From NCBI RefSeq assembly GCF_013315695.1, contig NZ_CP054353.1: 64,000 nucleotides of DNA; one strand, given 5' to 3'. The translations under genes and the position numbers were made by a program. This DNA comes from Escherichia coli (GTDB lineage: Bacteria; Pseudomonadota; Gammaproteobacteria; Enterobacterales; Enterobacteriaceae). Within the stretch, counting starts at the first letter, position 1; every line of letters starts with the position of its first letter. Below, one piece after another: positions 6,598-35,868 of the stretch. The notes below the pieces were generated by a model, which made no database searches, was not told where the DNA came from, and saw only the letters and a list, made by a program, of their open reading frames with translations.

Positions 6598-6652
6598 GGT
6601 GATGCTGCCAACTTACTGATTTAGTGTATGATGGTGTTTTTGAGGTGCTCCA

Positions 6653-6928
6653 GTGGCTTCTGTTTCTATCAGCTGTCCCTCCTGTTCAGCTACTGACGGG
6701 GTGGTGCGTAACGGCAAAAGCACCGCCGGACATCAGCGCTATCTCTGCTCTCACTGCCGTAAAACATGGCAACTGCAGTTCACTTACACCGCTTCTCAAC
6801 CCGGTACGCACCAGAAAATCATTGATATGGCCATGAATGGCGTTGGATGCCGGGCAACAGCCCGCATTATGGGCGTTGGCCTCAACACGATTTTACGTCA
6901 CTTAAAAAACTCAGGCCGCAGTCGGTAA
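6653..6928 (+). CDS. insA: IS1 InsA (transposition inhibitor / N-terminal part of InsAB transposase)
   Basis: 91-aa [42 protein letters not shown]..., zinc-finger CxxC...CxxC; A6C slippery site ttaaaaaac near its 3-prime end. Confidence 0.95.
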
Positions 6929-7350
6929 CCTCGCGCATACAGCCGGGCAGTGACGTCATCGTCTGCGCGGAAATGGACGAACAGTGGGGCTATGTCGGGG
7001 CTAAATCGCGCCAGCGCTGGCTGTTTTACGCGTATGACAGGCTCCGGAAGACGGTTGTTGCGCACGTATTCGGTGAACGCACTATGGCGACGCTGGGGCG
7101 TCTTATGAGCCTGCTGTCACCCTTTGACGTGGTGATATGGATGACGGATGGCTGGCCGCTGTATGAATCCCGCCTGAAGGGAAAGCTGCACGTAATCAGC
7201 AAGCGATATACGCAGCGAATTGAGCGGCATAACCTGAATCTGAGGCAGCACCTGGCACGGCTGGGACGGAAGTCGCTGTCGTTCTCAAAATCGGTGGAGC
7301 TGCATGACAAAGTCATCGGGCATTATCTGAACATAAAACACTATCAATAA
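6847..7350 (+). CDS. insB: IS1 InsB frame (expressed as InsAB by -1 frameshift)
   Basis: 167-aa ORF in -1 frame relative to insA, ending ...HYLNIKHYQ. Confidence 0.9.
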
Positions 7351-7505
7351 GTTGGAGTCATTACCACTTGAACCGATAATAAACGCAGAAATTCTATTTT
7401 GTAGCTCATTGTTGCCTCCTGTGTGAATTGTTCGAATCTACCAGGCTGCGATGAAAGAAGTCGTGTAGTAGAGAGCTATACCCGCAACAAGCGGGGCAGA
7501 CGTTC

Positions 7506-16448: not shown

Positions 16449-16476
16449 ATGCTCTGGATAAGGATCATCCAATTCT

Positions 16477-16581
16477 AAAAAAAAGCCCGGACGACGGTTC
16501 GGGCTTGTCTCATTATTTGTTGGATAAACAGTAACAAGGGTCCAACAGAAAATAATCTTTGTGACAATAAAGGCATATAAC
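16477..16581 (-). ncRNA. micC: MicC sRNA (Hfq-dependent repressor of ompC)
   Basis: Reverse complement reads GTTATATGCCTTTATTGTCAC... and ends in hairpin GCCCGAACCGTCGTCCGGGC plus T8; the 5-prime seed and terminator match MicC; lies between ydbK and ompN as in K-12. Confidence 0.8.
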
Positions 16582-16838
16582 CCGCGAAGAATAACGCATC
16601 ACTATTTAAATGTATAATTTTTATTTTGTATATGTCGCCAACAATATATTCACCAGACTTATTATCATTTCAGAAGAATTATTTGATTAAGGTTTTACTT
16701 AAGGCGTAACAAATAATATTTATCGTCTAACTGAACTTCTCCTTTAGGATGCTTTCACTCCCCGAAATGGGGATAAAAGGCAAGGTGATGCTGCCAACTT
16801 ACTGATTTAGTGTATGATGGTGTTTTTGAGGTGCTCCA

Positions 16839-17114
16839 GTGGCTTCTGTTTCTATCAGCTGTCCCTCCTGTTCAGCTACTGACGGGGTGGTGCGTAACGG
16901 CAAAAGCACCGCCGGACATCAGCGCTATCTCTGCTCTCACTGCCGTAAAACATGGCAACTGCAGTTCACTTACACCGCTTCTCAACCCGGTACGCACCAG
17001 AAAATCATTGATATGGCCATGAATGGCGTTGGATGCCGGGCAACAGCCCGCATTATGGGCGTTGGCCTCAACACGATTTTACGTCACTTAAAAAACTCAG
17101 GCCGCAGTCGGTAA
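16839..17114 (+). CDS. insA: IS1 InsA
   Basis: 91-aa ORF identical to the InsA of copy 1. Confidence 0.95.
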
Positions 17115-17536
17115 CCTCGCGCATACAGCCGGGCAGTGACGTCATCGTCTGCGCGGAAATGGACGAACAGTGGGGCTATGTCGGGGCTAAATCGCGCCAG
17201 CGCTGGCTGTTTTACGCGTATGACAGGCTCCGGAAGACGGTTGTTGCGCACGTATTCGGTGAACGCACTATGGCGACGCTGGGGCGTCTTATGAGCCTGC
17301 TGTCACCCTTTGACGTGGTGATATGGATGACGGATGGCTGGCCGCTGTATGAATCCCGCCTGAAGGGAAAGCTGCACGTAATCAGCAAGCGATATACGCA
17401 GCGAATTGAGCGGCATAACCTGAATCTGAGGCAGCACCTGGCACGGCTGGGACGGAAGTCGCTGTCGTTCTCAAAATCGGTGGAGCTGCATGACAAAGTC
17501 ATCGGGCATTATCTGAACATAAAACACTATCAATAA
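17033..17536 (+). CDS. insB: IS1 InsB frame
   Basis: 167-aa ORF identical to the InsB of copy 1. Confidence 0.9.
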
Positions 17537-17551
17537 GTTGGAGTCATTACC

Positions 17552-18357
17552 TCGATTACGGACGTAATTATGGCGTAATGTACGACATCGAAGGCTGGAC
17601 CGATATGCTGCCTGAATTTGGCGGTGACTCTTATACCAATGCAGACAACTTTATGACTGGTCGTGCCAACGGCGTCGCGACTTATCGTAATACTGATTTC
17701 TTCGGTCTGGTAAATGGTCTGAACTTCGCAGTGCAGTATCAAGGTAACAACGAAGGTGCCAGTAATGGTCAGGAAGGCACCAACAACGGACGTGATGTTC
17801 GCCATGAAAACGGTGACGGCTGGGGTCTTTCCACAACATATGATTTAGGCATGGGCTTTAGCGCTGGTGCGGCATACACCTCATCTGACCGCACCAATGA
17901 CCAGGTTAACCATACTGCGGCAGGTGGTGATAAAGCAGACGCGTGGACTGCTGGGCTAAAATACGATGCTAACAATATTTACCTGGCAACCATGTATTCA
18001 GAAACACGTAACATGACCCCGTTTGGCGACAGCGATTATGCAGTTGCGAACAAAACCCAGAACTTTGAAGTTACTGCACAGTACCAGTTTGATTTTGGTC
18101 TGCGTCCGGCAGTCTCTTTCCTGATGTCTAAAGGCCGTGACCTTCACGCTGCCGGTGGTGCAGACAACCCGGCAGGTGTTGATGATAAAGATCTGGTTAA
18201 ATACGCCGATGTTGGCGCGACTTACTATTTCAACAAAAATATGTCCACCTACGTTGACTATAAAATCAACCTGTTGGATGAAGATGACAGCTTCTACGCT
18301 GCCAACGGCATCTCTACCGATGATATTGTCGCTTTAGGTCTGGTTTATCAGTTCTAA
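17552..18357 (+). pseudogene. ompN: Outer-membrane porin OmpN, 5-prime-truncated by IS1 (about 110 N-terminal codons missing)
   Basis: Frame is open from the first base after IS1 (..[25 protein letters not shown]...LGLVYQF*), which aligns to the middle and C-terminus of OmpC-family porins; no signal peptide or promoter remains. Confidence 0.85.
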
Positions 18358-19107: not shown

Positions 19108-19161
19108 ATGTCGCAAAATCAAGAAATTAGTAAGAAAGAACAATACAACCTGAACAAGTAA
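19108..19161 (+). pseudogene. ttcC: ttcA-like 5-prime fragment marking the prophage attR
   Basis: ATG TCG CAA AAT CAA GAA ATT AGT AAG AAA GAA CAA TAC AAC CTG AAC AAG TAA encodes [17 protein letters not shown], a diverged copy of the TtcA N-terminus ([17 protein letters not shown]) at 33431. Confidence 0.7.
19132..19157. repeat. Prophage attachment core, right copy (26-bp direct repeat)
   Basis: aagaaagaacaatacaacctgaacaa, identical to 33455..33480 inside the ttcA start. Confidence 0.75.
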
Positions 19162-19257
19162 GGGCAAAAATCACAACTCTCTGACTCATAAGTATTTTAC
19201 TTATTTTTCAATGTGTTAAATATCATCAGCGACAACAATAAGCTACGATAACCCACT

Positions 19258-19310
19258 CTTTTTTTGCCCCTTTTTTGCCCCTTTTGCAGCGCTTTGCCCC
19301 ATTTTTGCCA
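19258..19310. repeat. Cluster of four TTTTGCC(CC) direct repeats
   Basis: tttttgcccc ttttttgcccc ttttgcagcgc tttgcccc atttttgcca; between attR and the sitA regulatory region. Confidence 0.4.
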
Positions 19311-19421
19311 TCAACAATTTTCCTCATCAAGTCATTTCAAAGCCTAATAGGTGCCCTACTTTTTTCCTCAGTACCACGTCGCCAGCAGGAAACAACCTAA
19401 TCCCGGTTCGGATCTAAAATT

Positions 19422-19440
19422 GCTAATGATAATCATTTTC
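19422..19440 (+). promoter_or_regulatory. Fur box upstream of sitA
   Basis: gctaatgataatcattttc matches the 19-bp Fur consensus GATAATGATAATCATTATC at 16/19 positions. Confidence 0.6.
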
Positions 19441-19462
19441 ATTTTGTATTGCTTATGCTATA

Positions 19463-19484
19463 AAACATAGCCGTTGCTATGTTT
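19463..19484 (+). promoter_or_regulatory. MntR operator upstream of sitA
   Basis: Perfect palindrome aaacatagc-cgtt-gctatgttt, the MntR-box architecture, 33 bp upstream of the sitA ATG. Confidence 0.7.
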
Positions 19485-19516
19485 GTTCTAATTTTGCTCA
19501 CTATAGGTACTAAATT

Positions 19517-20431
19517 ATGTACTCAATAAAAAAAGTAACCATGCTCTTGGGGTGCCTCGCCCTCACCTGCTCGATCGCATTTCAGGCGAGTGCAACTGAA
19601 AAATTCAAGGTCATTACAACATTTACCATCATCGCAGATATGGCCAAAAACGTGGCTGGAGATGCTGCAGAAGTCTCATCCATAACCAAGCCCGGTGCAG
19701 AAATTCATGAGTATCAGCCTACCCCTGGCGATATTAAACGTGCGCAGGAGGCACAACTGATTCTCGCCAATGGTATGAATCTGGAATTGTGGTTCCAACG
19801 CTTTTACCAGCATCTTAATGGGGTTCCAGAAGTAATTGTCTCTTCGGGTGTGACGCCAGTAGGGATCACTGAAGGCCCCTATGAGGGCAAACCTAACCCC
19901 CATGCCTGGATGTCGCCAGATAATGCTCTGATTTACGTCGATAATATTCGTGATGCGTTGATAAAATACGATCCGGCAAATGCACAAACCTACCAACGTA
20001 ATGCCGATACTTATAAAGCCAAGATTACCCAAACCCTTGCCCCCCTGCGTAAGCAGATTGCTGAACTCCCTGAGAATCAGCGATGGATGGTCACCAGTGA
20101 AGGGGCTTTTTCTTATCTCGCACGCGATTTGGGGCTAAAAGAGCTTTATCTGTGGCCGATTAATGCCGATCAACAAGGCACGCCGCAGCAGGTACGTAAG
20201 GTTGTTGATATGGTGAAGAAAAATCATATCCCGGCAGTCTTTAGCGAGAGTACGATTTCCGATAAACCAGCGCGTCAGGTTGCGCGTGAAACCGGCGCGC
20301 ACTACGGCGGTGTACTCTATGTCGATTCCCTGAGCACAGAAAACGGCCCGGTACCTACGTATATCGACCTTCTGAAGGTTACTACCAGTACGCTGGTACA
20401 GGGAATTAAAGCCGGGAAAAGGGAGAAATAA
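19517..20431 (+). CDS. sitA: Mn/Fe ABC transporter periplasmic substrate-binding protein SitA
   Basis: 304-aa ORF with signal peptide, cluster-9 metal-binding family (SitA/YfeA/MntC-like). Confidence 0.9.
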
Positions 20432-21258
20432 TGATGCAATCTGCGGGCATTGTCGTTAATGATGTTACTGTCACCTGGCGTAACGGGCACACAGCACTGC
20501 GCGATGCATCCTTCACAGTACCAAGTGGATCTATTGCCGCTCTGGTTGGGGTAAACGGTTCCGGAAAATCGACGTTGTTTAAAGCGATTATGGGATTTGT
20601 GCGTCTGACCAGCGGAAAGATATCTGTTCTGGGTATTCCCACGCGACAGGCGCTACAGAAAAACCTGGTTGCCTACGTCCCTCAGTCAGAAGAGGTTGAC
20701 TGGTCATTTCCTGTACTAGTGGAAGATGTGGTGATGATGGGCCGCTATGGGCACATGGGTATGTTGCGTATAGCCAAAAAGAGGGATCGTCAGATTGTCA
20801 CCGATGCGCTGGAACGTGTCGATATGGTGGATTTTCGCCATCGACAAATCGGCGAGCTTTCCGGTGGACAAAAGAAACGCGTCTTTCTGGCGAGAGCGAT
20901 TGCACAGCAGGGTGATGTGATCCTGCTGGATGAACCTTTTACCGGCGTTGATGTGAAAACCGAAGCGAAAATCATCAGCCTGTTGAGGGAGTTACGCGCG
21001 GAAGGCAAGACGATGCTTGTCTCAACGCACAATCTCGGCTCAGTCACGACATTTTGCGATTATACGGTCATGGTCAAAGGCACCGTCCTGGCAAGCGGGC
21101 CGACAGACACCACTTTTACAGCCGAGAACCTGGAGCTGGCTTTTAGCGGCGTACTGCGCCATGTCACACTTAACGCCTCGGAAGAAAGCATTATTACTGA
21201 CGATGAACACCCTTTTGTGGCACATCGACCGTCAGCGGTGCAGAGGGAAGCAAGATGA
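20431..21258 (+). CDS. sitB: Mn/Fe ABC transporter ATP-binding protein SitB
   Basis: 275-aa ORF with Walker [13 protein letters not shown] signature LSGGQKKR and Walker B ILLDEP. Confidence 0.9.
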
Positions 21259-22112
21259 ACGTGCTACTGGAACCCTTCAGCTATGAATATATGCTCAATG
21301 CGATGTGGGTCTCGGCGATGGTCGGCGGTCTCTGCGCTTTCCTGTCATGCTATCTGATGCTAAAAGGCTGGTCGCTGATTGGCGATGCGCTGTCGCACTC
21401 TATTGTCCCGGGTGTTGCGGGGGCATATATGCTGGGGCTTCCGTTTTCTCTGGGAGCCTTCTTTTCCGGCGGACTGGCAGCGGGCAGCATGCTGTTTCTT
21501 AACCAACGCACTCGCTTAAAAGAAGATGCCATCATCGGCCTGATCTTCTCCTCCTTTTTTGGCCTGGGGCTGTTTATGGTGTCATTGAACCCGACATCCG
21601 TGAACATTCAGACCATCGTCCTAGGCAATATTCTGGCAATCGATCCGGCGGATATCCTGCAACTCACTATCATTGGCATTCTCTCGATCATCGTGCTTTT
21701 TTTCAAATGGAAAGATCTTATGGTGACCTTTTTCGACGAGAATCACGCCCGTGCTATTGGATTGCATCCGGGCAGATTAAAAATCCTCTTCTTCACCCTG
21801 CTGTCGGTTTCGACCGTTGCGGCGCTGCAAACGGTTGGTGCCTTTCTGGTGATCTGTCTGGTGGTGACTCCCGGTGCAACAGCATGGTTGTTAACCGATC
21901 GTTTTCCCCGCCTGCTCATAATTGCTGTAACTATTGGCAGTGTAACCAGTTTCCTCGGCGCGTGGGTCAGTTACTTTCTGGACGGCGCGACAGGTGGAAT
22001 CATCGTGGTGGCGCAGACACTGCTGTTTCTTTTAGCATTTGTATTTGCGCCCACCCATGGGCTTTTGGCAAATCGTCGGCGTGCGCATAAAGCGCTGGAG
22101 GATCGCTCATGA
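21255..22112 (+). CDS. sitC: Mn/Fe ABC transporter permease SitC
   Basis: 285-aa polytopic membrane ORF; start overlaps the sitB stop. Confidence 0.9.
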
Positions 22113-22966
22113 TGGCATTATTACTGGAGCCACTGCAGTTCACCTTTATGAGTCACGCACTGCTGATTTCACTGGTAGTTTCCATACCCTGTGCGCTGCT
22201 GTCGGTCTTTCTGGTCCTGAAAGGTTGGGCACTGATGGGTGACGCGATGAGTCATGCGGTTTTTCCTGGCATCGTGCTTGCCTGGATTCTGGGGTTACCT
22301 CTGGCTACAGGGGCATTTATCGCCGGAGTATTCTGCGCGGTGGCGACGGGATACCTGAAAGACAACAGCCGAATCAAGCAAGATACAGTGATGGGGATTG
22401 TTTTTTCTGGCATGTTTGCCGCAGGTCTGATCTTGTATATTGCAGTCAAACCAGACATACATCTTGACCATATTCTTTTCGGCGACATGCTCGGGGTAAC
22501 CATCGGCGATATAATCCAGACGATGATTATTGCCGGGCTGGTTACACTTGTTATTAGCGTAAAATGGCGGGATTTTTTGCTGTTCAGCTTTGATTATCAA
22601 CAGGCGCAGGTAAGCGGTTTGCATACGCGATGGCTGCATTATGGGCTGCTGTGCATGGTTTCCCTGACCATTGTGGCGACGCTGAAAGCAGTAGGTATCA
22701 TTCTCTCCATTTCTCTGCTCATTGCGCCTGGCGCCATTGCGGTACTCCTGACACAACGCTTTCATATTGCACTCCTACTGGCGACTGGCATATCGGTAAT
22801 AGTCTCAATGACTGGTGTTTGGCTGTCCTTTTTTATCGACAGCGCACCCGCTCCGACGATTGTCGTCTTATTCGCGGTTGTGTTCATCATGACGTTTACC
22901 GTTATCAGTTTCAACGCACGCACAAAGGGAAACGCTCATAGACAGGATCTGTTATCCCCCAATTAG
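22109..22966 (+). CDS. sitD: Mn/Fe ABC transporter permease SitD
   Basis: 285-aa polytopic membrane ORF paralogous to SitC; start overlaps the sitC stop. Confidence 0.9.
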   Translation: MMALLLEPLQFTFMSHALLISLVVSIPCALLSVFLVLKGWALMGDAMSHAVFPGIVLAWILGLPLATGAFIAGVFCAVATGYLKDNSRIKQDTVMGIVFSGMFAAGLILYIAVKPDIHLDHILFGDMLGVTIGDIIQTMIIAGLVTLVISVKWRDFLLFSFDYQQAQVSGLHTRWLHYGLLCMVSLTIVATLKAVGIILSISLLIAPGAIAVLLTQRFHIALLLATGISVIVSMTGVWLSFFIDSAPAPTIVVLFAVVFIMTFTVISFNARTKGNAHRQDLLSPN

Positions 22967-23077
22967 CACAACATCCGAGGGCAGCATTGTCCGCTAGTAC
23001 ACTGCAGTCCAGAAAGTCATGGGCGGACGTTGGGAGGAGGCGCTAATCCTTTCATACAAAAAATATGTAAAATCAAT

Positions 23078-23150
23078 AACGGCTGTAAATCATTCAATAC
23101 TCGCACTATCGGAAGTTCACCAGCCAGCCGCAGCACGTTCTTGCATACGA
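23078..23150. repeat. Diverged direct repeat, left copy (3-prime end of a small membrane-protein gene plus downstream sequence)
   Basis: aatcattcaatactcgcactatcg matches 24557..24580 at 22/24; similarity continues through cttgcatacgacgtg. Reverse strand encodes ...LALSIVIGGLVKLKPQTRRMQERAAAGW* with no start codon. Confidence 0.5.
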
Positions 23151-23417
23151 CGTGTCTGCGGTTTCAACTTCACCAGTCCACCAATCACGATGGACAGTGC
23201 CAAGACAGCACTAGCAAAAACAGGAAATTAGCAGTCTCAGCAGAACACCGACCAGACGGTGAAGAAACAAAAAAGGATACGCAAAGGGGCCGCAGTTCCC
23301 GATTGATAAAAAAGCCAGCTTATGCGCTTTTTTTTCATGTATTATTAAGTATTGGTTAGCGTCTTTTTAATCAGAACTTTAAAGACAAGCCATTTGTAAG
23401 AAAACCGACAGATTCGG

Positions 23418-24233
23418 TTGACAAGCAGGAGTAATACTTTGGACATAAGAAAAGATTTGGAATCAGTAGCCCAATATATAAGTAGACTGTTATCGATAGG
23501 GTACGAATTTAGCCGTTTTGATAAAGACTGGGTCCATTTAAAAAATGAAGAGGATTTTCGTTTTATTTCAAGAATACCATTTGCAACACGGAATAAAGTG
23601 GAAGCAGTATATGCGGAAGGCAGAGATATGGCACTTTATATGTCTGATGAGTTACTATCCATTAATAGTGATTTCAGTAAATTTCCAACGTTGACAGCTA
23701 TTATCGAAAGATTCAAGGACACTTGGGTTTATGGTAATTATGATTCGGAAGTGCCAAATATAGCTAAAAAAACATGCGAAGAAAATGCAGTTCAGCTTTG
23801 GTCTGTAGAACAGATGTGTTCCTTATTCAAAAAGCAAGAACAACTATTAGCAGCAGTACGTATCACATTGCAGATGCTACAAGATAGTGACCTATACAAG
23901 ATGGAGAATGGTTTACCTCTTATGAAACAAGAAGCTAATATTCATGTCAGTGGAATTTCCGGTTCTAGTATCAATATACATTCTTCAGGTGCTACGGCAA
24001 CTACTACGACAAATTATAATGAGCCCACAATATTTAATGAAATGATTGAGGCAATAAAATCGAAAAACTTTGATGGCGCGACAGAATCACACCTTATAGA
24101 TAATGTACAGGCACTGGCAGCCAGTCACCAAAGCGGCTGTTTTAAAGAAGCATATAAGGACTTTATTAATAATGTATCTGCACACATTACAGTATTTACT
24201 CCATTTCTTGCTGGCATATCATCTTTACTATAA
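23418..24233 (+). CDS. Orphan hypothetical protein in AT-rich islet (function unknown)
   Basis: 271-aa ORF from the track; no in-frame ATG near the 5-prime end, likely start TTG at 23439 with AGGAG 8 nt upstream; AT-rich codon usage unlike flanking genes; C-terminal low-complexity Ser/Thr stretch and hydrophobic tail. Confidence 0.5.
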   Translation: MTSRSNTLDIRKDLESVAQYISRLLSIGYEFSRFDKDWVHLKNEEDFRFISRIPFATRNKVEAVYAEGRDMALYMSDELLSINSDFSKFPTLTAIIERFKDTWVYGNYDSEVPNIAKKTCEENAVQLWSVEQMCSLFKKQEQLLAAVRITLQMLQDSDLYKMENGLPLMKQEANIHVSGISGSSINIHSSGATATTTTNYNEPTIFNEMIEAIKSKNFDGATESHLIDNVQALAASHQSGCFKEAYKDFINNVSAHITVFTPFLAGISSLL

Positions 24234-24556
24234 AATAAGTGACAGATACATTAATACATAACGAAAAATCTTTTTAGCTACTCATTCATATCAATAGTGC
24301 CCTACCATAGGGCACATTATTCGTGGAACTCGTTTATGACAAAAGAATTTTGATGGTCTGCCTGATGCAACAGATATAATTCTGGGAGTGTTGAGTAAGA
24401 GTATTCACCGGCGCTCAACACAAATGCCAGCAAGCACGAGAAAGAGCAGGTAAGCCTGAGTGTTCAGGAAATGTTTGAAAAGGCTAATATGTGGCTGGTT
24501 TCAGATTAAACGCCTTGAACCGTCATATTACTTAAGTACAATCCGCCTAGACTAGC

Positions 24557-24630
24557 AATCATTCAATAGTAGCACTATCGAGCGCTCGCCAGTCGAGCGC
24601 AATCATGCTCCTTGCATACGGCGTGCAGCA
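24557..24630. repeat. Diverged direct repeat, right copy
   Basis: aatcattcaatagtagcactatcg ... cttgcatacggcgtg; partner of 23078..23150. Confidence 0.5.
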
Positions 24631-24778
24631 TATCACAAAACGATTACGCCATGACGGACTGCAGGCTACTCAATATCTGGCTCGATTAGCGTATTGGCAT
24701 GATTTAACAGACCCCGGCGCTTATTCCCAGCAACCTGAAGCGGCACCTCTTCCTGTGTTGCGTTTACAACTCCCTTTT

Positions 24779-25072
24779 TCACCCACGATTAACCAACAGC
24801 CAGACCAGCAGACAAGCCACCACCGGCACAGAAAAATCCATCAGGCTTGCCACATCCCACACGCGCGGATCAAAACCACCCCACCACGGCATATTCATAC
24901 GCTTGCCATGCCCGAACATTTCAATCCAGCGATATTCTGCCTGGGTATGTTCACGAGCAATGAAGAACGTACAACCGGCTATCGCCCCGTAAGCCCAGTT
25001 TCCGGTAAAAAGACCAACCAGTACCTGCGCAGCCACAGCACAAAGTGCATGAAGGAAAGGTGTTATATCCAT
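24779..25072 (-). CDS. Small hydrophobic (probable inner-membrane) protein, function unknown
   Basis: ORF track 24779..25087; ATG at 25070-25072 preceded by AGGA; MDITPFLHALCAVAAQVLVGLF... with about three predicted TM segments; its C-terminus is homologous to the fragment encoded by the left direct repeat. Confidence 0.5.
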   Translation of the reverse strand: MDITPFLHALCAVAAQVLVGLFTGNWAYGAIAGCTFFIAREHTQAEYRWIEMFGHGKRMNMPWWGGFDPRVWDVASLMDFSVPVVACLLVWLLVNRG

Positions 25073-25148
25073 TTTCATCCTACCCAATAAAACGAGGCGC
25101 TCGGCCCCTTAATATTATTTAGACGCAAGCGTCGGTAATGACTCCAAC

Positions 25149-25652
25149 TTATTGATAGTGTTTTATGTTCAGATAATGCCCGATGACTTTGTCATGCAGC
25201 TCCACCGATTTTGAGAACGACAGCGACTTCCGTCCCAGCCGTGCCAGGTGCTGCCTCAGATTCAGGTTATGCCGCTCAATTCGCTGCGTATATCGCTTGC
25301 TGATTACGTGCAGCTTTCCCTTCAGGCGGGATTCATACAGCGGCCAGCCATCCGTCATCCATATCACCACGTCAAAGGGTGACAGCAGGCTCATAAGACG
25401 CCCCAGCGTCGCCATAGTGCGTTCACCGAATACGTGCGCAACAACCGTCTTCCGGAGCCTGTCATACGCGTAAAACAGCCAGCGCTGGCGCGATTTAGCC
25501 CCGACATAGCCCCACTGTTCGTCCATTTCCGCGCAGACGATGACGTCACTGCCCGGCTGTATGCGCGAGGTTACCGACTGCGGCCTGAGTTTTTTAAGTG
25601 ACGTAAAATCGTGTTGAGGCCAACGCCCATAATGCGGGCTGTTGCCCGGCAT
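25149..25652 (-). CDS. insB: IS1 InsB frame
   Basis: 167-aa ORF identical to the other InsB copies. Confidence 0.9.
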
Positions 25653-25846
25653 CCAACGCCATTCATGGCCATATCAATGATTTTCTGGTGCGTACCGGGT
25701 TGAGAAGCGGTGTAAGTGAACTGCAGTTGCCATGTTTTACGGCAGTGAGAGCAGAGATAGCGCTGATGTCCGGCGGTGCTTTTGCCGTTACGCACCACCC
25801 CGTCAGTAGCTGAACAGGAGGGACAGCTGATAGAAACAGAAGCCAC
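25571..25846 (-). CDS. insA: IS1 InsA
   Basis: 91-aa ORF identical to the other InsA copies. Confidence 0.95.
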
Positions 25847-25925
25847 TGGAGCACCTCAAAAACACCATCATACACTAAATCAGTAAGTTGGCAGCATCAC
25901 CCCCGGCGTTAAGGGGAGAGATAAG

Positions 25926-26060
25926 ATGGTGCATTACGAAGTAGTTCAGTATTTGATGGATTGTTGCGGTATCACTTACAACCAGGCTGTGCAGGCTTTA
26001 CGCAGCAACGCCTGGGATCTCTGGCAGGCAGAAGTCGCTATACGTAGCAACAAGATGTGA
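25926..26060 (+). CDS. ydaG: Rac-prophage small protein (YdaG-like, 44 aa)
   Basis: Below the ORF-track cutoff; ATG 25926 to TGA 26058-26060 encodes MVHYEVVQYLMDCCGITYNQAVQALRSNAWDLWQAEVAIRSNKM; assigned by size and position next to sieB. Confidence 0.5.
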   Translation: MVHYEVVQYLMDCCGITYNQAVQALRSNAWDLWQAEVAIRSNKM

Positions 26061-26070
26061 GATTCGCAAA

Positions 26071-26226
26071 ATGCAAAAAATCGACCTCGGCAACAACGAA
26101 TCCCTGGTGTGCGGCGTGTTCCCCAACCAGGATGGAACGTTCACTGCCATGACGTATACCAAAAGCAAAACATTTAAAACCGAAACTGGTGCGCGCCGAT
26201 GGTTGGAGAAGCACACAGTAAGCTAA
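26071..26226 (+). CDS. ydaF: Rac-prophage small protein (YdaF-like, 51 aa)
   Basis: Below the ORF-track cutoff; ATG 26071 to TAA 26224-26226 encodes MQKIDLGNNESLVCGVFPNQDGTFTAMTYTKSKTFKTETGARRWLEKHTVS; convergent with sieB. Confidence 0.5.
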   Translation: MQKIDLGNNESLVCGVFPNQDGTFTAMTYTKSKTFKTETGARRWLEKHTVS

Positions 26227-26711
26227 CGATTAAAACGTCTACTCCTGCTGTTCCAGAATAACTTCATAAAATGGGAGTATTTTTCGGTGACGAGATAATA
26301 AGAACAGTTTGCGCTATCACTCTGATGTTGAATGATGCCCTTCCGTTCTAATTTTTTCATAACCGGGTTACGGCAAGGAGAAGTGATAATAAGATTTCCT
26401 GTTTTAAGGAAATCTTTAAATACAGCGATTTCTTTCTCAGATAAACGAAGCAATACTCGTTGCTCTGGTAGTAATGAATAATGCTTTTGAATATGTGCTC
26501 GCAATCTTGAGAAGGAAATGGCGACCACGAAAGAAAAGGCAAAAACGATAATCTGAAAGAGCCAAGGTATTTCAGTATAAGCATTGAATGCGACAGTAAA
26601 CTCTTTCGGTATCAGCCAGAGAGTGAGACCAAAAATGATAATCGTATACATAAGTCTTTCGAGTGGCTCGTTAGCAAAAAGTTTCAATAATGGAGTAGAT
26701 ACATCCAACAT
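26223..26711 (-). CDS. sieB: Superinfection exclusion protein B
   Basis: ORF track 26223..26834; ATG at 26709-26711 gives MLDVSTPLLKLFANEPLERLMYTIIIFGLTLWLIP... (162 aa) with two TM helices. Confidence 0.85.
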   Translation of the reverse strand: MLDVSTPLLKLFANEPLERLMYTIIIFGLTLWLIPKEFTVAFNAYTEIPWLFQIIVFAFSFVVAISFSRLRAHIQKHYSLLPEQRVLLRLSEKEIAVFKDFLKTGNLIITSPCRNPVMKKLERKGIIQHQSDSANCSYYLVTEKYSHFMKLFWNSRSRRFNR

Positions 26712-27151
26712 ATCAATAACTCTCAACTGTAAGGGTATTGAAATGTTAACACAAGCTCTCGCTGTAGGGGTATAGCCGAGACCACCGAAGCCCGGAGGTG
26801 GTGAAATAAAACCGGGCACAACACGAAGGCGCATTTCCGATATCCATAAAGAGTCGGTCTTGTCTGTTAAATTTAAATGGTGGGAGTGCGCCTCCGGTTG
26901 TAAATAACGACATTGCTGTGTGTAGTCCTGGCGGCATCAGTTTTTTCTTGAAGTTCGGCTGATGTCCGCCCTTTTTTAAGTGAATTTTGTGATGCGGTGA
27001 ATGCGGCTAAGCGCACGTGGCACAGTTAAAAGTCATGTTAGTCCTTATTGGTTTGGGTGGGAAAGCCGACTGTAATTGTTAACTGGTTGCAGTCACCTGG
27101 AGGCACCAGGCACCGCATCAACAAAGTTCATTTGTAAAAATGGAGATAATT

Positions 27152-27373
27152 ATGATTGCACATCACTTCGGAACTGATGAAATACCACGTCAGTGTGTGA
27201 CTCCTGGCGATTATGTTCTTCATGAAGGCCGGACATATATTGCCTCGGCAAACAATATTAAAAAGCGAAAACTATATATTCGTAACCTGACCACAAAAAC
27301 ATGCATTACTGACCGCATGATTAAAGTCTTCCTCGGTCGTGATGGTTTACCTGTAAAGGCGGAGTCATGGTGA
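27152..27373 (+). CDS. kilR: Rac-prophage killing protein KilR (FtsZ inhibitor)
   Basis: ORF track 27140..27373; ATG at 27152 after GGAG gives [42 protein letters not shown]... (73 aa). Confidence 0.9.
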
Positions 27374-27543
27374 TGACTAAGAAAATAAAATGTGCTTACC
27401 ACCTTTGCAAAAAAGACGTTGAAGAAAGCAAAGCTATTGAAAGAATGCTTCACTTCATGCACGGGATTTTATCAAAAGACGAACCGAGAAAATATTGCAG
27501 TGAATCTTGTGCCGAAAAAGACCAGATGGCACATGAACTTTAA
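27373..27543 (+). CDS. ydaE: Rac-prophage small zinc-binding protein YdaE
   Basis: Below the ORF-track cutoff; ATG overlaps the kilR TGA (TGATG); [56 protein letters not shown] (56 aa) with a Cys-rich motif. Confidence 0.7.
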   Translation: MTKKIKCAYHLCKKDVEESKAIERMLHFMHGILSKDEPRKYCSESCAEKDQMAHEL

Positions 27544-27617
27544 TTAATTGACTATTCGAAACTGAATTTATGCCAGAAATGGCAGGTATTCGCTCAACCT
27601 TAATTAAGGAGAAAAAC

Positions 27618-27893
27618 ATGATTACCAATTATGAAGCCACTGTTGTAACTACCGATGACATTGTTCACGAGGTGAATCTGGAAGGAAAGCGCATTGGCTA
27701 CGTAATTAAAACAGAAAATAAAGAAACCCCATTCACTGTGGTTGATATCGATGGTCCATCAGGCAACGTAAAAACACTTGATGAAGGTGTCAAAAAAATG
27801 TGCCTGGTGCATATCGGAAAGAATCTGCCCGCAGAAAAAAAAGCCGAATTTCTGGCAACTCTAATTGCAATGAAATTAAAAGGTGAAATCTGA
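27618..27893 (+). CDS. racC: Rac-prophage protein RacC
   Basis: ORF track 27570..27893; ATG at 27618 gives MITNYEATVVTTDDIVHEVNLEGKRIGYVIKTENKETPF... (91 aa). Confidence 0.85.
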   Translation: MITNYEATVVTTDDIVHEVNLEGKRIGYVIKTENKETPFTVVDIDGPSGNVKTLDEGVKKMCLVHIGKNLPAEKKAEFLATLIAMKLKGEI

Positions 27894-27994
27894 AAGAAAT
27901 AGCCTGCGTATGGCGCAGGCTATGAACAGTGTGTATCCGGCAAGATCATTCACTGAACAAAACGAATTTTAATCTGAGTTGAGGTTAAAAAACA

Positions 27995-30595
27995 ATGAGC
28001 ACAAAACCACTCTTCCTGTTACGGAAAGCGAAAAAATCATCCGGTGAACCTGACGTCGTCCTGTGGGCAAGCAACGATTTTGAATCGACCTGTGCCACTC
28101 TGGACTACCTGATCGTTAAGTCAGGTAAAAAACTGAGCAGCTATTTTAAAGCTGTTGCCACGAATTTTCCTGTCGTTAATGACCTGCCCGCTGAAGGTGA
28201 GATCGATTTTACCTGGAGTGAACGCTATCAACTCAGCAAAGACTCCATGACATGGGAACTAAAACCGGGAGCAGCACCAGACAACGCTCACTATCAAGGC
28301 AATACCAACGTCAACGGCGAAGACATGACTGAGATTGAGGAGAATATGCTACTCCCAATTTCTGGCCAGGAACTGCCCATTCGTTGGCTTGCTCAACACG
28401 GCAGCGAAAAACCGGTAACGCACGTTTCACGCGACGGACTCCAGGCATTACACATTGCTCGGGCTGAAGAACTACCGGCTGTTACTGCCCTGGCTGTTTC
28501 CCACAAAACCAGCCTGCTCGACCCGCTGGAAATTCGCGAACTCCACAAACTGGTTCGTGACACTGACAAAGTTTTCCCTAATCCTGGTAATTCAAACCTG
28601 GGACTGATAACTGCTTTTTTCGAAGCATACCTGAACGCTGACTACACCGATCGAGGACTGCTGACAAAAGAGTGGATGAAGGGTAATCGTGTTTCACACA
28701 TCACTCGCACGGCTTCCGGTGCTAATGCTGGCGGCGGAAACCTCACCGATCGCGGCGAAGGTTTCGTACACGATCTGACGTCACTGGCGCGCGACGTAGC
28801 CACTGGCGTACTGGCCCGTTCAATGGATCTGGACATCTATAACCTTCATCCGGCACACGCTAAACGCATTGAGGAAATTATCGCTGAAAATAAACCGCCC
28901 TTTTCTGTTTTCCGCGACAAATTCATCACCATGCCTGGCGGGCTGGATTATTCCCGCGCCATCGTGGTTGCGTCCGTAAAAGAAGCACCAATTGGGATCG
29001 AGGTCATCCCCGCGCACGTCACTGAATATCTGAACAAAGTACTGACTGAAACCGATCATGCCAACCCTGATCCGGAAATCGTGGATATTGCCTGCGGTCG
29101 CTCCTCTGCCCCGATGCCGCAGCGAGTAACAGAAGAAGGAAAACAGGATGATGAAGAAAAACCGCAACCATCTGGAACAACGGCAGTTGAACAGGGAGAG
29201 GCTGAAACAATGGAACCGGACGCAACTGAACATCATCAGGACACGCAGCCGCTGGATGCTCAGTCACAGGTAAATTCTATTGATGCGAAATATCAGGAAC
29301 TGCGGGCAGAACTCCATGAAGCCCGGAAAAACATTCCATCAAAAGATCCTGTCGATGCCGATAAATTGCTTGCTGCATCACGTGGTGAATTTGTTGACGG
29401 AATTAGCGACCCGAACGATCCGAAATGGGTAAAGGGGATCCAGACTCGCGATTGTGTGTACCAGAACCAGCCAGAAACGGAAAAAACCAGCCCGGATATG
29501 AATCAACCTGAGCCAGTAGTGCAACAGGAACCGGAAATAGCCTGCAATGCCTGCGGCCAGACTGGCGGGGATAACTGCCCTGACTGTGGTGCGGTGATGG
29601 GCGACGCAACATACCAGGAAACATTCGATGAAGAGAGTCAGGTTGAAGCTAAGGAAAATGATCCGGAGGAAATGGAAGGCGCTGAACATCCGCACAATGA
29701 GAATGCTGGCAGCGATCCGCATCGCGATTGCAGTGATGAAACTGGCGAAGTCGCAGATCCCGTAATCGTAGAAGACATAGAGCCAGGTATTTATTACGGA
29801 ATTTCGAATGAGAATTACCACGCGGGTCCCGGTGTCAGTAAGTCTCAGCTCGATGACATTGCTGATACTCCGGCACTATATTTGTGGCGTAAAAATGCCC
29901 CCGTTGACACCACAAAGACAAAAACGCTCGATTTAGGAACCGCTTTCCACTGCCGGGTACTTGAACCGGAAGAATTCAGTAACCGCTTTATCGTAGCACC
30001 TGAATTTAACCGCCGTACAAACGCCGGAAAAGAAGAAGAGAAAGCGTTTCTGATGGAATGCGCAAGCACAGGAAAAACAGTTATCACTGCGGAAGAAGGC
30101 CGGAAAATTGAACTCATGTATCAAAGCGTTATGGCTTTGCCGCTGGGGCAATGGCTTGTTGAAAGCGCCGGACACGCTGAATCATCAATTTACTGGGAAG
30201 ATCCTGAAACAGGAATTTTGTGTCGGTGCCGTCCGGACAAAATTATCCCTGAATTTCACTGGATCATGGACGTGAAAACTACGGCGGATATTCAACGATT
30301 CAAAACCGCTTATTACGACTACCGCTATCACGTTCAGGATGCATTCTACAGTGACGGTTATGAAGCACAGTTTGGAGTGCAGCCAACTTTCGTTTTTCTG
30401 GTTGCCAGCACAACTATTGAATGCGGACGTTATCCGGTTGAAATTTTCATGATGGGCGAAGAAGCAAAACTGGCAGGTCAACAGGAATATCACCGCAATC
30501 TGCGAACCCTGTCTGACTGCCTGAATACCGATGAATGGCCAGCTATTAAGACATTATCACTGCCCCGCTGGGCTAAGGAATATGCAAATGACTAA
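27995..30595 (+). CDS. recE: Exodeoxyribonuclease VIII (RecE)
   Basis: 866-aa [44 protein letters not shown]...; full length with the C-terminal nuclease domain; overlaps the recT start by 8 nt. Confidence 0.95.
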
Positions 30596-31397
30596 GCAAC
30601 CACCAATCGCAAAAGCCGATCTGCAAAAAACTCAGGGAAACCGTGCACCAGCAGCAGTTAAAAATAGCGACGTGATTAGTTTTATTAACCAGCCATCAAT
30701 GAAAGAGCAACTGGCAGCAGCTCTTCCACGCCATATGACGGCTGAACGTATGATCCGTATCGCCACCACAGAAATTCGTAAAGTTCCGGCGTTAGGAAAC
30801 TGTGACACTATGAGTTTTGTCAGTGCGATCGTACAGTGTTCACAGCTCGGACTTGAGCCAGGTAGCGCCCTCGGTCATGCATATTTACTGCCTTTTGGTA
30901 ATAAAAACGAAAAGAGCGGTAAAAAGAACGTTCAGCTAATCATTGGCTATCGCGGCATGATTGATCTGGCTCGCCGTTCTGGTCAAATCGCCAGCCTGTC
31001 AGCCCGTGTTGTCCGTGAAGGTGACGAGTTTAGCTTCGAATTTGGCCTTGATGAAAAGTTAATACACCGCCCGGGAGAAAACGAAGATGCCCCGGTTACC
31101 CACGTCTATGCTGTCGCAAGACTGAAAGACGGAGGTACTCAGTTTGAAGTTATGACGCGCAAACAGATTGAGCTGGTGCGCAGCCTGAGTAAAGCTGGTA
31201 ATAACGGGCCGTGGGTAACTCACTGGGAAGAAATGGCAAAGAAAACGGCTATTCGTCGCCTGTTCAAATATCTGCCCGTATCAATTGAGATCCAGCGTGC
31301 AGTATCAATGGATGAAAAGGAACCACTGACAATCGATCCTGCAGATTCCTCTGTATTAACCGGGGAATACAGTGTAATCGATAATTCAGAGGAATAA
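30588..31397 (+). CDS. recT: Single-strand annealing recombinase RecT
   Basis: ORF track 30531..31397; ATG at 30588 gives [35 protein letters not shown]... (269 aa). Confidence 0.95.
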
Positions 31398-31453
31398 TTC
31401 AGCCTGGCGGTGTAATGCACCGCCAACTTGAAATATTTTTTATGAGAAAAATT

Positions 31454-31648
31454 ATGAGATATGACAATGTTAAACCATGTCCATTTTGTGGTTGTCCATC
31501 AGTAACGGTGAAAGTCATTTCAGGATATTACCGAGCGAAGTGTAACGGATGCGAATCCCGAACCGGTTATGGTGGAAGTGAAAAAGAAGCACTCGAAAGA
31601 TGGAATAAACGAACCACTGGAAATAATAACGGAGGTGTTCATGTATAA
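31454..31648 (+). CDS. ralR: Restriction-alleviation protein / type I toxin RalR (Lar)
   Basis: ORF track 31415..31648; ATG at 31454 gives MRYDNVKPCPFCGCPSVTVKVISGYYRAKCNGCESRTGYGG... (64 aa). Confidence 0.85.
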   Translation: MRYDNVKPCPFCGCPSVTVKVISGYYRAKCNGCESRTGYGGSEKEALERWNKRTTGNNNGGVHV

Positions 31649-31829
31649 AATTACCGCCACTATTGAAAAGGAAGGTGGCACTCCTACTAACTGGACAAGA
31701 TATTCAAAATCTAAACTAACGAAATCAGAATGCGAAAAAATGCTCTCAGGTAAAAAAGAAGCAGGCGTTTCCAGAGAGCAGAAAGTAAAACTGATAAATT
31801 TTAATTGCGAGAAACTTCAGTCCTCGTGA
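31641..31829 (+). CDS. ydaC: Rac-prophage protein YdaC
   Basis: ORF track 31569..31829; ATG at 31641 (GGAGG upstream) gives MYKITATIEKEGGTPTNWTRYSKSKL... (62 aa); overlaps the ralR 3-prime end by 8 nt. Confidence 0.7.
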   Translation: MYKITATIEKEGGTPTNWTRYSKSKLTKSECEKMLSGKKEAGVSREQKVKLINFNCEKLQSS

Positions 31830-31928
31830 ATTGCATTGTATTCAAATTAAAACTTCATAGCTGATTATTAATAATCAACATCGGGCGTCAATTTCAGTCT
31901 AACATTGGCGCCTGCCAGAGGTGATGCG

Positions 31929-32144
31929 ATGGCACAAGTAATCTTTAATGAAGAGTGGATGGTTGAATACGGCCTGATGCTTCGCACTGGTCTGGGGGCC
32001 AGACAAATTGAAGCATACCGCCAGAACTGTTGGGTGGAGGGCTTCCACTTCAAACGAGTATCTCCTTTAGGTAAGCCAGACAGCAAACGAGGGATTATCT
32101 GGTACAACTATCCAAAGATAAATCAGTTTATCAAAGACTCATGA
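31929..32144 (+). CDS. xisR: Rac-prophage excisionase
   Basis: ORF track 31905..32144; ATG at 31929 gives [44 protein letters not shown]... (71 aa); stop overlaps the intR start region. Confidence 0.8.
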
Positions 32145-32145
32145 T

Positions 32146-33379
32146 ATGTCTAAATTACCAACAGGTGTCGAGATTAGAGGTAGATACATTCGCATCTGGT
32201 TCATGTTTCGAGGAAAACGATGTCGGGAAACATTAAAAGGCTGGGAGATTACAAACAGTAATATTAAAAAGGCCGGAAATTTAAGAGCGCTGATAGTTCA
32301 TGAAATAAACTCCGGTAAATTTGAGTATTTAAGACGTTTTCCCCAGTCCAGCACTGGGGCAAAAATGGTGATAACGAGAGTCATAAAAACGTTCGGAGAG
32401 CTTTGTGATATCTGGACAAAAATTAAAGAGACAGAGTTAACAACAAACACAATAAAGAAAACGAAATCACAATTAAAAACACTCAGAATAATAATTTGTG
32501 AAAGTACCCTGATATCACATATTCGTTATAGCGATATCTTAAACTACCGGAATGAACTGCTGCATGGAGAAACGCTTTACCTGGATAATCCAAGATCCAA
32601 CAAAAAAGGAAGAACCGTGCGCACAGTTGATAACTATATCGCCCTGCTCTGTTCGCTGTTACGTTTTGCGTATCAGTCGGGATTTATATCAACCAAACCA
32701 TTTGAAGGAGAAAAAATTACAGCGAAACAGAATAAAGCCTGATCCGTTATCTAAAACAGAATTCAATGCATTAATGGAAAGTGAAAAAGGACAGAGCCAG
32801 AACATGTGGAAATTTGCAGTTTACTCAGGACTTCGTCACGGGGAACTGGCAGCTCTGGCGTGGGAGGATGTGGATCTCGAAAAGGGAATAGTGAATGTCA
32901 GAAGAAACCTGACGATACTTGATATGTTCGGTCCCCCAAAAACAAATGCCGGGATCCGGACAGTAACACTACTGCAGCCTGCTCTTGAAGCACTGAAGGA
33001 GCAATACAAACTGACCGGGCATCATCGCAAAAGCGAAATCACCTTTTATCATCGGGAGTACGGCAGAACCGAAAAGCAAAAACTGCATTTTGTTTTCATG
33101 CCCAGGGTGTGTAACGGAAAACAAAAACCTTATTACTCGGTAAGCAGTTTGGGGGCAAGGTGGAATGCAGCAGTAAAACGTGCTGGTATTCGCCGCCGTA
33201 ATCCGTACCATACGCGGCATACTTTTGCCTGCTGGCTGTTGACGGCAGGAGCGAACCCGGCATTTATAGCCAGCCAAATGGGGCATGAAACTGCGCAGAT
33301 GGTGTATGAAATTTACGGTATGTGGATTGATGACATGAACGACGAACAGATAGCCATGTTGAATGCGCGGTTATCATAG
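32146..33379 (+). pseudogene. intR: Rac-prophage tyrosine integrase, apparently split by a +/-1 frameshift near 32709-32716
   Basis: ORF 32146..32742 (198 aa, ...STKPFEGEKITAKQNKA*) and ORF 32552..33379 carry the N- and C-terminal parts (catalytic ...HTRHTFACWLL...) in adjacent frames; frames switch in the run gagaaaaaatt; the sum of the parts is about 411 codons. Confidence 0.7.
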
Positions 33380-33430
33380 TTGCAAAGTTTGCCCCCAATT
33401 TGCCCCATTTAGTACCAGAGAACTGAAATA

Positions 33431-34366
33431 ATGCAAGAAAATCAACAAATTACAAAGAAAGAACAATACAACCTGAACAAATTACAAAAACGTCTGCGTC
33501 GTAACGTGGGCGAAGCCATTGCTGACTTCAATATGATTGAAGAAGGCGATCGCATCATGGTTTGCCTCTCCGGGGGTAAAGACAGCTATACCATGCTGGA
33601 AATTCTGCGCAATTTGCAGCAAAGCGCGCCAATCAATTTTTCGCTGGTGGCTGTTAACCTCGATCAAAAACAACCGGGCTTCCCGGAACACGTTCTGCCC
33701 GAGTATCTTGAAAAGCTGGGCGTTGAGTACAAGATTGTGGAAGAGAACACTTACGGTATCGTGAAAGAGAAGATTCCGGAGGGCAAAACCACTTGCTCAC
33801 TGTGTTCTCGTCTTCGTCGCGGTATCCTTTATCGCACCGCAACGGAACTGGGGGCGACGAAGATCGCGTTGGGTCACCATCGTGACGATATCCTGCAAAC
33901 GCTGTTCTTAAATATGTTCTACGGCGGCAAGATGAAAGGTATGCCTCCGAAACTGATGAGCGATGATGGCAAACATATCGTGATTCGCCCGCTGGCCTAC
34001 TGCCGCGAGAAAGATATTCAGCGCTTTGCCGATGCAAAAGCGTTCCCGATTATTCCGTGCAACCTGTGCGGTTCACAGCCTAACCTGCAACGTCAGGTGA
34101 TTGCTGACATGTTGCGTGACTGGGATAAACGTTATCCGGGGCGTATCGAGACGATGTTCAGCGCGATGCAGAATGTGGTGCCATCGCATCTGTGCGATAC
34201 CAACCTGTTCGATTTCAAAGGCATTACCCACGGTTCTGAAGTGGTTAACGGGGGTGATCTGGCGTTTGATCGCGAAGAGATCCCTCTACAACCGGCGGGT
34301 TGGCAGCCTGAAGAAGATGAAAATCAGTTGGATGAGTTACGACTGAATGTGGTTGAAGTGAAATAA
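33431..34366 (+). CDS. ttcA: tRNA 2-thiocytidine(32) synthetase TtcA
   Basis: 311-aa ORF with PP-loop SGGKDS and CxxC motifs; the att core lies inside its first 50 nt. Confidence 0.95.
33455..33480. repeat. Prophage attachment core, left copy (26-bp direct repeat)
   Basis: aagaaagaacaatacaacctgaacaa, identical to 19132..19157. Confidence 0.75.
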
Positions 34367-34371
34367 CCCGG

Positions 34372-34450
34372 ATAGCGCCCGATGCGCAAGCTTATCGGGC
34401 TACTCTTATGGAGGCCGGAGAAGACGCGGCCAGCGTCGCATCCGGCAATC
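34372..34450. repeat. REP/BIME-type extragenic palindromes
   Basis: cccgatgcgcaagcttatcgggc and gcggccagcgtcgcatccggc resemble REP consensus units in opposite orientations, between convergent ttcA and dbpA. Confidence 0.5.
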
Positions 34451-34494
34451 CCGAAGAAGATGTTTACTCTTGCACCCGGCAATTCAACATTTCA

Positions 34495-35868
34495 TTATTT
34501 TAATAACCGCACCCGGCACGTTTTTCCTTTAATCTTCCCGCCCTGTAACTGTTTCCATGCTTTATGAGCAACAGCCTGACGCACCGCGACATAGACATGC
34601 GCCGGATGCACGGCGATTTTGCCAATATCTGCGCCATCAAGCCCGATGTCTCCTGTCAGCGCACCTAATACATCACCCGGGCGCATTTTGGCTTTTTTCC
34701 CGCCATCGATACATAACGTTGCCATTTCTGCTTCCAGCGGCACAATGGAACTATTAACTGGCGGCGTTTGCCAGTTAAGTTTTATCTGCAACATGTCAGA
34801 AATGATATTGGCCCGCTGTGCTTCTTCCGGGGCACAGAAACTGATCGCCAGACCGCTATTTCCTGCACGAGCTGTACGGCCGATGCGATGTACATGAACT
34901 TCAGGGTCCCACGCCAGCTCAAAGTTCACCACCAGCTCAAGCGATTTTATATCCAGACCACGCGCAGCAACATCAGTCGCGACCAGTACACGGGCGCTAC
35001 CGTTAGCAAAACGGACCAGGGTCTGATCGCGATCACGTTGCTCCAGATCGCCGTGTAACGACAATGCACTTTGCCCTACTTCATTCAGCGCGTCGCAGAC
35101 AGCCTGGCAATCTTTTTTGGTATTGCAAAACACCACGCAAGAGGATGGCTGATGCAAACTTAATAACCGTTGCAACAGCGGAATTTTGCCTTTGCTGGAT
35201 GTCTCATAAAATTGTTGTTCAATGGGAGGCAGAGCATCTGTTGAGTCAATTTCAATCGCCAATGGATCGCGTTGCACTCGTCCGCTGATTGCGGTGATGG
35301 CTTCCGGCCAGGTTGCCGAAAACAGAAGCGTCTGTCGAGATGCTGGCGCAAAACGGATAACATCATCAATGGCATCGCTAAATCCCATATCCAGCATGCG
35401 ATCGGCTTCATCCATCACCAGCATATTCAACGCATCCAGTGATACCGTGCCTTTTTGCAGATGGTCCAGCAAACGACCCGGGGTTGCCACGATAATATGC
35501 GGCGCATGTTGCAACGAATCACGCTGCATACCGAACGGTTGACCACCGCACAACGTCAAAATTTTGGTATTTGGCAGAAAACGCGCCAGCCGACGCAATT
35601 CACCTGCTACCTGATCCGCCAGTTCACGCGTAGGACACAGCACTAAAGCCTGGGTTTGAAATAGCGACGCATCAATTTGCTGTAACAAGCCGAGGCCAAA
35701 AGCCGCCGTTTTGCCACTGCCGGTTTTCGCCTGCACGCGAACATCTTTTCCGGCAAGGATCGCCGGAAGCGCGGCGGCCTGCACCGGCGTCATGGTTAAA
35801 TAACCCAACTCATTAAGGTTCGTGAGTTGGGCGGGAGGCAAAACATTCAGGGTAGAAAAAGCGGTCAC
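34495..35868 (-). CDS. dbpA: ATP-dependent 23S rRNA helicase DbpA (DEAD-box)
   Basis: 457-aa ORF with AKTGSGKT, DEAD and SAT motifs. Confidence 0.95.
   Translation of the reverse strand: MTAFSTLNVLPPAQLTNLNELGYLTMTPVQAAALPAILAGKDVRVQAKTGSGKTAAFGLGLLQQIDASLFQTQALVLCPTRELADQVAGELRRLARFLPNTKILTLCGGQPFGMQRDSLQHAPHIIVATPGRLLDHLQKGTVSLDALNMLVMDEADRMLDMGFSDAIDDVIRFAPASRQTLLFSATWPEAITAISGRVQRDPLAIEIDSTDALPPIEQQFYETSSKGKIPLLQRLLSLHQPSSCVVFCNTKKDCQAVCDALNEVGQSALSLHGDLEQRDRDQTLVRFANGSARVLVATDVAARGLDIKSLELVVNFELAWDPEVHVHRIGRTARAGNSGLAISFCAPEEAQRANIISDMLQIKLNWQTPPVNSSIVPLEAEMATLCIDGGKKAKMRPGDVLGALTGDIGLDGADIGKIAVHPAHVYVAVRQAVAHKAWKQLQGGKIKGKTCRVRLLK

Follow-up and report, generated by a model that had tools for sequence, protein, structure and literature searches.

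In Escherichia coli K-12, the Rac prophage lies between ttcA and ttcC′, and intR adjoins the attachment site in ttcA (PMC4632033). XisR is the Rac excisionase, and excision in K-12 is induced when excisionase and integrase are overproduced (PMC4632033). Immobilisation of cryptic prophages by mutations in the recombinase gene or in the att sites is termed "grounding", and intQ′ of Qin is one example (Ramisetty and Sudhakari, 2019; PMC6379469). A further system that resembles the locus described here is IS1, in which InsAB′ arises by a programmed frameshift at A6C.

The window analysed here, a 64,000-nt stretch of an E. coli genome (contig NZ_CP054353.1 of assembly GCF_013315695.1), contains an intR gene that sits between xisR and ttcA, as does the gene for IntR of K-12 Rac (b1345, 411 aa). 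When its reading frame is repaired in silico, the gene differs from a K-12-like intR at 9 of 1236 nt and at five amino acids, and it shares with K-12 IntR the order of arm-binding, core-binding and catalytic domains as well as the 26-bp att core in ttcA. By the xisR-intR-ttcA synteny and this near-identity, the gene is evidently the orthologue of Rac intR, and its place beside xisR and ttcA bears out an earlier note on this DNA, which had named it intR of a prophage remnant. Unlike in K-12 intR, the frame is broken at codon 189, which separates the catalytic domain from the DNA-binding domains. The prophage also departs from K-12 Rac, in that it is cut to the segment from intR to ydaG and carries sitABCD in place of the late region.

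The locus resembles grounded prophages in that the integrase gene of a defective lambdoid prophage is apparently inactivated while cargo genes stay chromosomal; unlike grounded examples with multiple mutations, it has a single, very recent lesion, and the att cores and the excisionase are intact. Its likeness to IS1, of which three copies in the window are annotated "programmed frameshift", lies in two overlapping frames that switch at six A. In IS1 the shift is −1 and is conserved throughout its copies, whereas intR would need a shift of +1 or −2, in one clone that has a single-ORF ancestor.

Table 1. Positions of the intR reading frames, the excision determinants and the flanking features in the window
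Feature	Position	Strand	Basis
intR pseudogene, Rac prophage tyrosine integrase, 1234 nt (1236 nt when intact)	32146..33379	+	Match to PGAP-annotated identical sequence
N-terminal ORF, 198 aa: 188 native codons, 10 out-of-frame codons and TGA	32146..32742	+	Translation
Premature TGA of the N-terminal frame	32740..32742	+	Sequence reading
Catalytic-domain coding part in the +1 frame, otherwise undamaged	32717..33379	+	Pfam Phage_integrase, E 5.9e-24
2-bp deletion site: TA missing between G32710 and the A6 run 32711-32716	32710..32716	+	Alignment with intact alleles
xisR, excisionase gene, intact	31929..32144	+	Protein WP_000079604.1, same as in the K-12-like strain
int-proximal att core, 26 bp, within the 5′ end of ttcA	33455..33480	+	Exact repeat
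Distal att core, identical 26 bp, adjoining uspF in the ttcC′ remnant	19132..19157	+	Exact repeat
IS1 copy truncating Rac 24 bp upstream of the ydaG-like ORF	25134..25901	-	Comparison with K-12-like genome; annotation
sitABCD, iron/manganese transporter genes, inside the 14.3-kb att-bounded segment	19517..22966	+	Annotation; position relative to the att cores
ttcA, host gene containing the Rac attachment site	33431..34366	+	Annotation; PMC4632033

The break in intR

The intR region holds two overlapping ORFs in adjacent frames on the plus strand (Table 1). In the first, which opens at the ATG at 32146, the native IntR residues end with ...KPFEG at codon 188 and are followed by the out-of-frame residues EKITAKQNKA; the +1 frame is open from far 5′ of the break until the stop at 33377-33379, and the C-terminal part of the protein begins in it with KKLQRNRIKPD.... 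The N-terminal ORF matches the arm-binding domain Arm-DNA-bind_2 (PF12167) at residues 5-69 (E 9.8e-27) and, more weakly, a SAM-like core-binding domain at residues ~82-189, whereas the C-terminal frame matches Phage_integrase (PF00589) with 85.2 bits against a gathering cut-off of 27.1. Because the arm-binding match lies in the first frame and the Phage_integrase match in the second, the two frames are clearly the halves of one tyrosine integrase. The ORFs, their translation and the Pfam matches to one integrase thus agree with the earlier note, in which intR had been described as split into adjacent frames with 188 native N-terminal codons.

The break falls between the core-binding domain, which ends at about residue 189, and the catalytic domain, which starts at about residue 205 according to the Pfam limits. 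In the repaired translation, the motifs GLRHGEL (229), HTRHTF (356), MGHET (379) and VYEIYG (387) all lie 3′ of the break and have counterparts in Int of PDB entry 6emy, by an alignment that covers residues 150-393. From this alignment and general knowledge, we take these motifs to contain the individual catalytic residues (Arg, His-x-x-Arg, His/Trp and the Tyr nucleophile). Because the break separates the core-binding from the catalytic domain, the 198-aa product lacks every catalytic residue and could at most bind DNA. One continuous frame that joins the DNA-binding to the catalytic domain is absent, the frames switching at 32710/32711, and the gene is to all appearances a pseudogene of the tyrosine recombinase family rather than a working member. 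An Rfam scan returned nothing that overlaps intR.

In the alignment, GGAGTAAAAAAATTA of the intact alleles corresponds to GGAGAAAAAATTA in the window; across the site, the intact allele is GAGTAAAAAAATT. The change is from GAG-TA-AAAAAATT to GAGAAAAAATT, that is, T is deleted together with one A from the A7 run next to it, which affects codons 189-190 and leaves six A in the window. Comparison with intact alleles including K-12 intR, as had been proposed, confirms the disrupted frame and identifies it as a 2-bp deletion. The switch had been placed within gagaaaaaatt at 32709-32719; the string is correct, and its actual position is 32708-32718. Re-insertion of TA in silico gives a 411-aa protein. 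Gain of one A leaves the gene out of frame, loss of one A gives 410 codons, and gain of two bases gives 411; the test that had been suggested, a continuous 411-codon frame after a change of one A in either direction, was therefore mis-specified for a lesion of 2 bp.

The nearest intact allele, that of GN06156, differs from the repaired gene by 2 nt, which correspond to E58K and T76I, and by none 3′ of the break. Because the distance is so small and nothing differs 3′ of the break, inactivation is recent and without further decay. An origin in two steps, in which a T-to-A change gave an A8 run that then lost two bases by slippage, is unsupported; the A8 intermediate was found at 100% identity in none of the complete genomes. 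At the equivalent of window 32708-32718, strain LR-17-1 (NZ_AP027479.1, 1521-1569) carries a separate +1 frameshift, with T followed by A8 instead of A7, and its intR is likewise annotated "frameshifted". The A7 run of intR may be a recurrent site of indels, or LR-17-1 may contain a homopolymer assembly error.

Distribution of the allele and alternative readings

When 5426 complete E. coli genomes were searched with the gene by megablast, 2918 gave matches, and every match listed is annotated intR. Identity of 100% over 1234 nt was found in only two of these complete genomes, and the next-best matches are all 1236 nt long. A 91-nt probe across the site found the deleted allele in two of the 1867 complete genomes that have the region; the intact 93-nt allele is present at 100% identity in 1111, including K-12. 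The two carriers are AF3 (NZ_OZ547117.1), from a blood culture in the UK, and MSB1_4I (NZ_LR898874.1), from a rectal swab in Australia, and PGAP gives the gene the label "intR, tyrosine-type recombinase/integrase, frameshifted" in both. Neither of the two is the source of the window, which represents a third genome of the same clone: against MSB1_4I it shows 3 SNPs and lacks 362 bp adjacent to IS1, and against AF3 it shows 3 SNPs over 36 kb together with that 362-bp deletion. In a public protein collection, 631 contigs (1108 index blocks) carry exactly this 198-aa product, down to the 10 out-of-frame residues; among their sources are the draft genomes KTE69 and KTE143 as well as metagenome assemblies from the gut. 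The diagnostic DNA string is present in all five further loci that were checked, so that the allele has been seen at the DNA level in at least eight assemblies (the window, AF3, MSB1_4I and the five others).

These data bear on whether intR is in reality an intact gene of 411 codons and the break an error of sequencing or assembly, an alternative that the earlier note had offered. The site does adjoin an A run, such runs are often mis-called by long-read assemblies, and the A8 run of LR-17-1 at the same place is itself a possible homopolymer error. Because T is lost in addition to A, the change is not an error of run length. Moreover, the assemblies checked at the DNA level come from different laboratories and countries and are of different types (draft, complete and metagenome), and both the recurrence of the exact truncated product on so many contigs and the co-segregation of the allele with a clone-specific IS1 junction speak against a sequencing error. 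Since the deletion of T and A is shared by many independent assemblies of different kinds, it is an inherited clonal mutation, and an error as its source is rejected as exceedingly improbable.

The remaining alternatives accept the deletion and assign it a function. A functional integrase of ~410 aa could be made at a low and possibly tuned level by recoding, either through +1 slippage of tRNA-Lys on G-AAA-AAA-TT or through transcriptional slippage on the A6 run. The site would suit the former, because a +1 move of tRNA-Lys from the AAA at 32713-32715 to that at 32714-32716 preserves perfect pairing and leads into TTA-CAG-CGA in the native KLQRNR frame, and the catalytic frame 3′ of the break is undamaged. 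The A-site codon ATT is, however, neither rare nor a stop codon. Efficient transcriptional slippage is known for runs of about nine or more, and the A6 run of intR is shorter. The single ORF is the ancestral and overwhelmingly common state, and because the frameshifted arrangement is limited to one clone, the hallmark of recoding, which is conservation across diverged homologues, is absent; recoding is accordingly judged highly improbable.

It has also to be considered whether the 198-aa fragment is kept because it is useful, either as a non-catalytic blocker that binds att or as part of a split integrase whose catalytic domain is made separately from the ATG at 32774 or 32804. The fragment retains two complete DNA-binding domains, gene callers predict a downstream ORF of 201 or 191 aa that holds the whole catalytic domain, and the truncated allele is stable in many isolates of the clone. 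Such stability within one recent clone is, however, already predicted by neutrality, neither internal ATG is preceded by a well-placed Shine-Dalgarno sequence, and the search of complete genomes found the same split architecture in no diverged lineage. A useful fragment is thus very unlikely. Like recoding, it was rejected for want of conservation and of translation signals. There is correspondingly only a slim chance that the split intR is not dead, whether because rare +1 slippage gives tuned, low excision of the sitABCD remnant or because the 198-aa fragment, as an inert att-binding protein, hinders Rac-like phages or helps to keep the island stable.

The reading preferred here is that intR is very probably a true pseudogene, caused by a recent clonal 2-bp deletion, and that the remnant, for want of a competent integrase, should be grounded. 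The deletion arose in an ancestor of one E. coli clone and shifts the frame at the hinge that separates the core-binding domain from the catalytic one. The protein translated from the native start has 198 aa, with the arm- and core-binding domains and without Arg, His-x-x-Arg, His and Tyr, so that no integrase competent for strand exchange would be produced. As a consequence, the 14.3-kb IS1-truncated Rac remnant, with sitABCD, recET, kilR, sieB and ralR/RalA, would be fixed ("grounded") in the chromosome.

The excision machinery and the Rac remnant

The att cores and xisR are intact. A 43-bp similarity connects ttcA, at its 5′ end, with the region adjacent to uspF, and 26 bp of it, AAGAAAGAACAATACAACCTGAACAA, form an identical core; this core occurs as two exact copies in the window and in none of 100 shuffles. 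From the distal core, homology to K-12 reaches ~150 bp into the prophage, and on the int side it is continuous. An initial repeat search, limited to 22000-34500, had found nothing relevant; loss of the distal att together with the IS1 deletion was considered and rejected, because comparison with K-12 located the distal core at the position given in Table 1. Two matching att cores and an intact XisR are present, and an intact integrase is absent. Since the att cores and xisR are undamaged, the frameshift in intR is, as judged from the sequences of these elements, the only visible lesion in the excision machinery; a further defect in cis, as in the arm-type Int and Xis binding sites, may exist. 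No second copy of intR was found in AF3 or MSB1_4I by a search that covered homologues of roughly 85% DNA identity or more. It is a reasonable inference that Int activity is lost and that the 14.3-kb segment, including sitABCD, is locked in place with no excision by its own integrase, although a heterologous integrase from another locus might in principle supply the function in trans.

The gene order, established from how AF3 and MSB1_4I are annotated and from a comparison with a K-12-like genome, is uspF, the distal att, sitABCD, two hypothetical genes, a frameshifted dinI-like gene and IS1, followed by ydaG-like, ydaF, sieB, kilR, ydaE, racC, recE, recT, ralR, DUF1187, xisR, intR and ttcA. 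The Rac part (25902-33379) is 99.2% identical to K-12 Rac. The genes racR and ydaS/T, those for replication and lysis, trkG and the tail genes are missing. Because IS1 removed the repressor, replication, lysis and structural genes, the remnant was probably already dead as a phage. The nearest intact intR allele, that of GN06156, by comparison lies in a Rac prophage that retains racR, ydaS, ydaT and more genes. Among the complete genomes, the IS1-Rac junction occurs only in AF3 and MSB1_4I, the same two that carry the frameshift; because both lesions are confined to this pair, both mark one clone.

Several smaller features of the segment were recorded. The virulence-associated cargo sitABCD is embedded in a Rac-derived element (19132-33480). 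The IS1 truncation also removed the racR-ydaG intergenic region, and kilR, sieB, recE and recT are intact though the repressor is gone. Between the sit genes and IS1, the DinI-like gene (24323-24509) is a frameshifted pseudogene in the two reference genomes. Within 31454-31825, the position of rcbA holds a 189-nt DUF1187 ORF as against the 210-nt rcbA of K-12.

Significance and neighbouring lesions

The state of intR is ordinary prophage decay ("grounding"), and its status as a pseudogene is already annotated in RefSeq; the lesion has little importance beyond correct annotation and opens no new question. Within these limits, it provides a stable marker for a single E. coli clone, and together with the IS1 truncation it would explain why the 14.3-kb Rac remnant should be permanently fixed beside ttcA. 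The locus may also serve as a clean example of grounding, with a single recent integrase mutation and with the att cores and the excisionase retained, and the strain would offer a convenient natural intR-null background for complementation of Rac excision.

Further lesions lie elsewhere in the window. Three identical 768-bp copies of IS1A occur within 20 kb (6598-7365, 16784-17551 and 25134-25901), and each adjoins a truncated or rearranged gene, namely a DUF2773 pseudogene, ompN and Rac, respectively. The 362 bp that are missing relative to AF3 and MSB1_4I lie immediately to the right of the second copy, at 17551/17552, and comprise the first 328 nt of ompN and 34 nt upstream of it, the ompN remnant beginning at 17552. 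This loss looks like an IS1-mediated adjacent deletion that truncated the porin gene ompN; the MicC sRNA is retained on the minus strand (16469-16584). On the minus strand at ~61524-63278, with a junction near 63053, the annotation of the corresponding stretch in MSB1_4I shows a partial ABC permease fused to a kojibiose phosphorylase (ycjT) truncated at its N terminus, which suggests a deletion inside the ycjM-V sugar operon.
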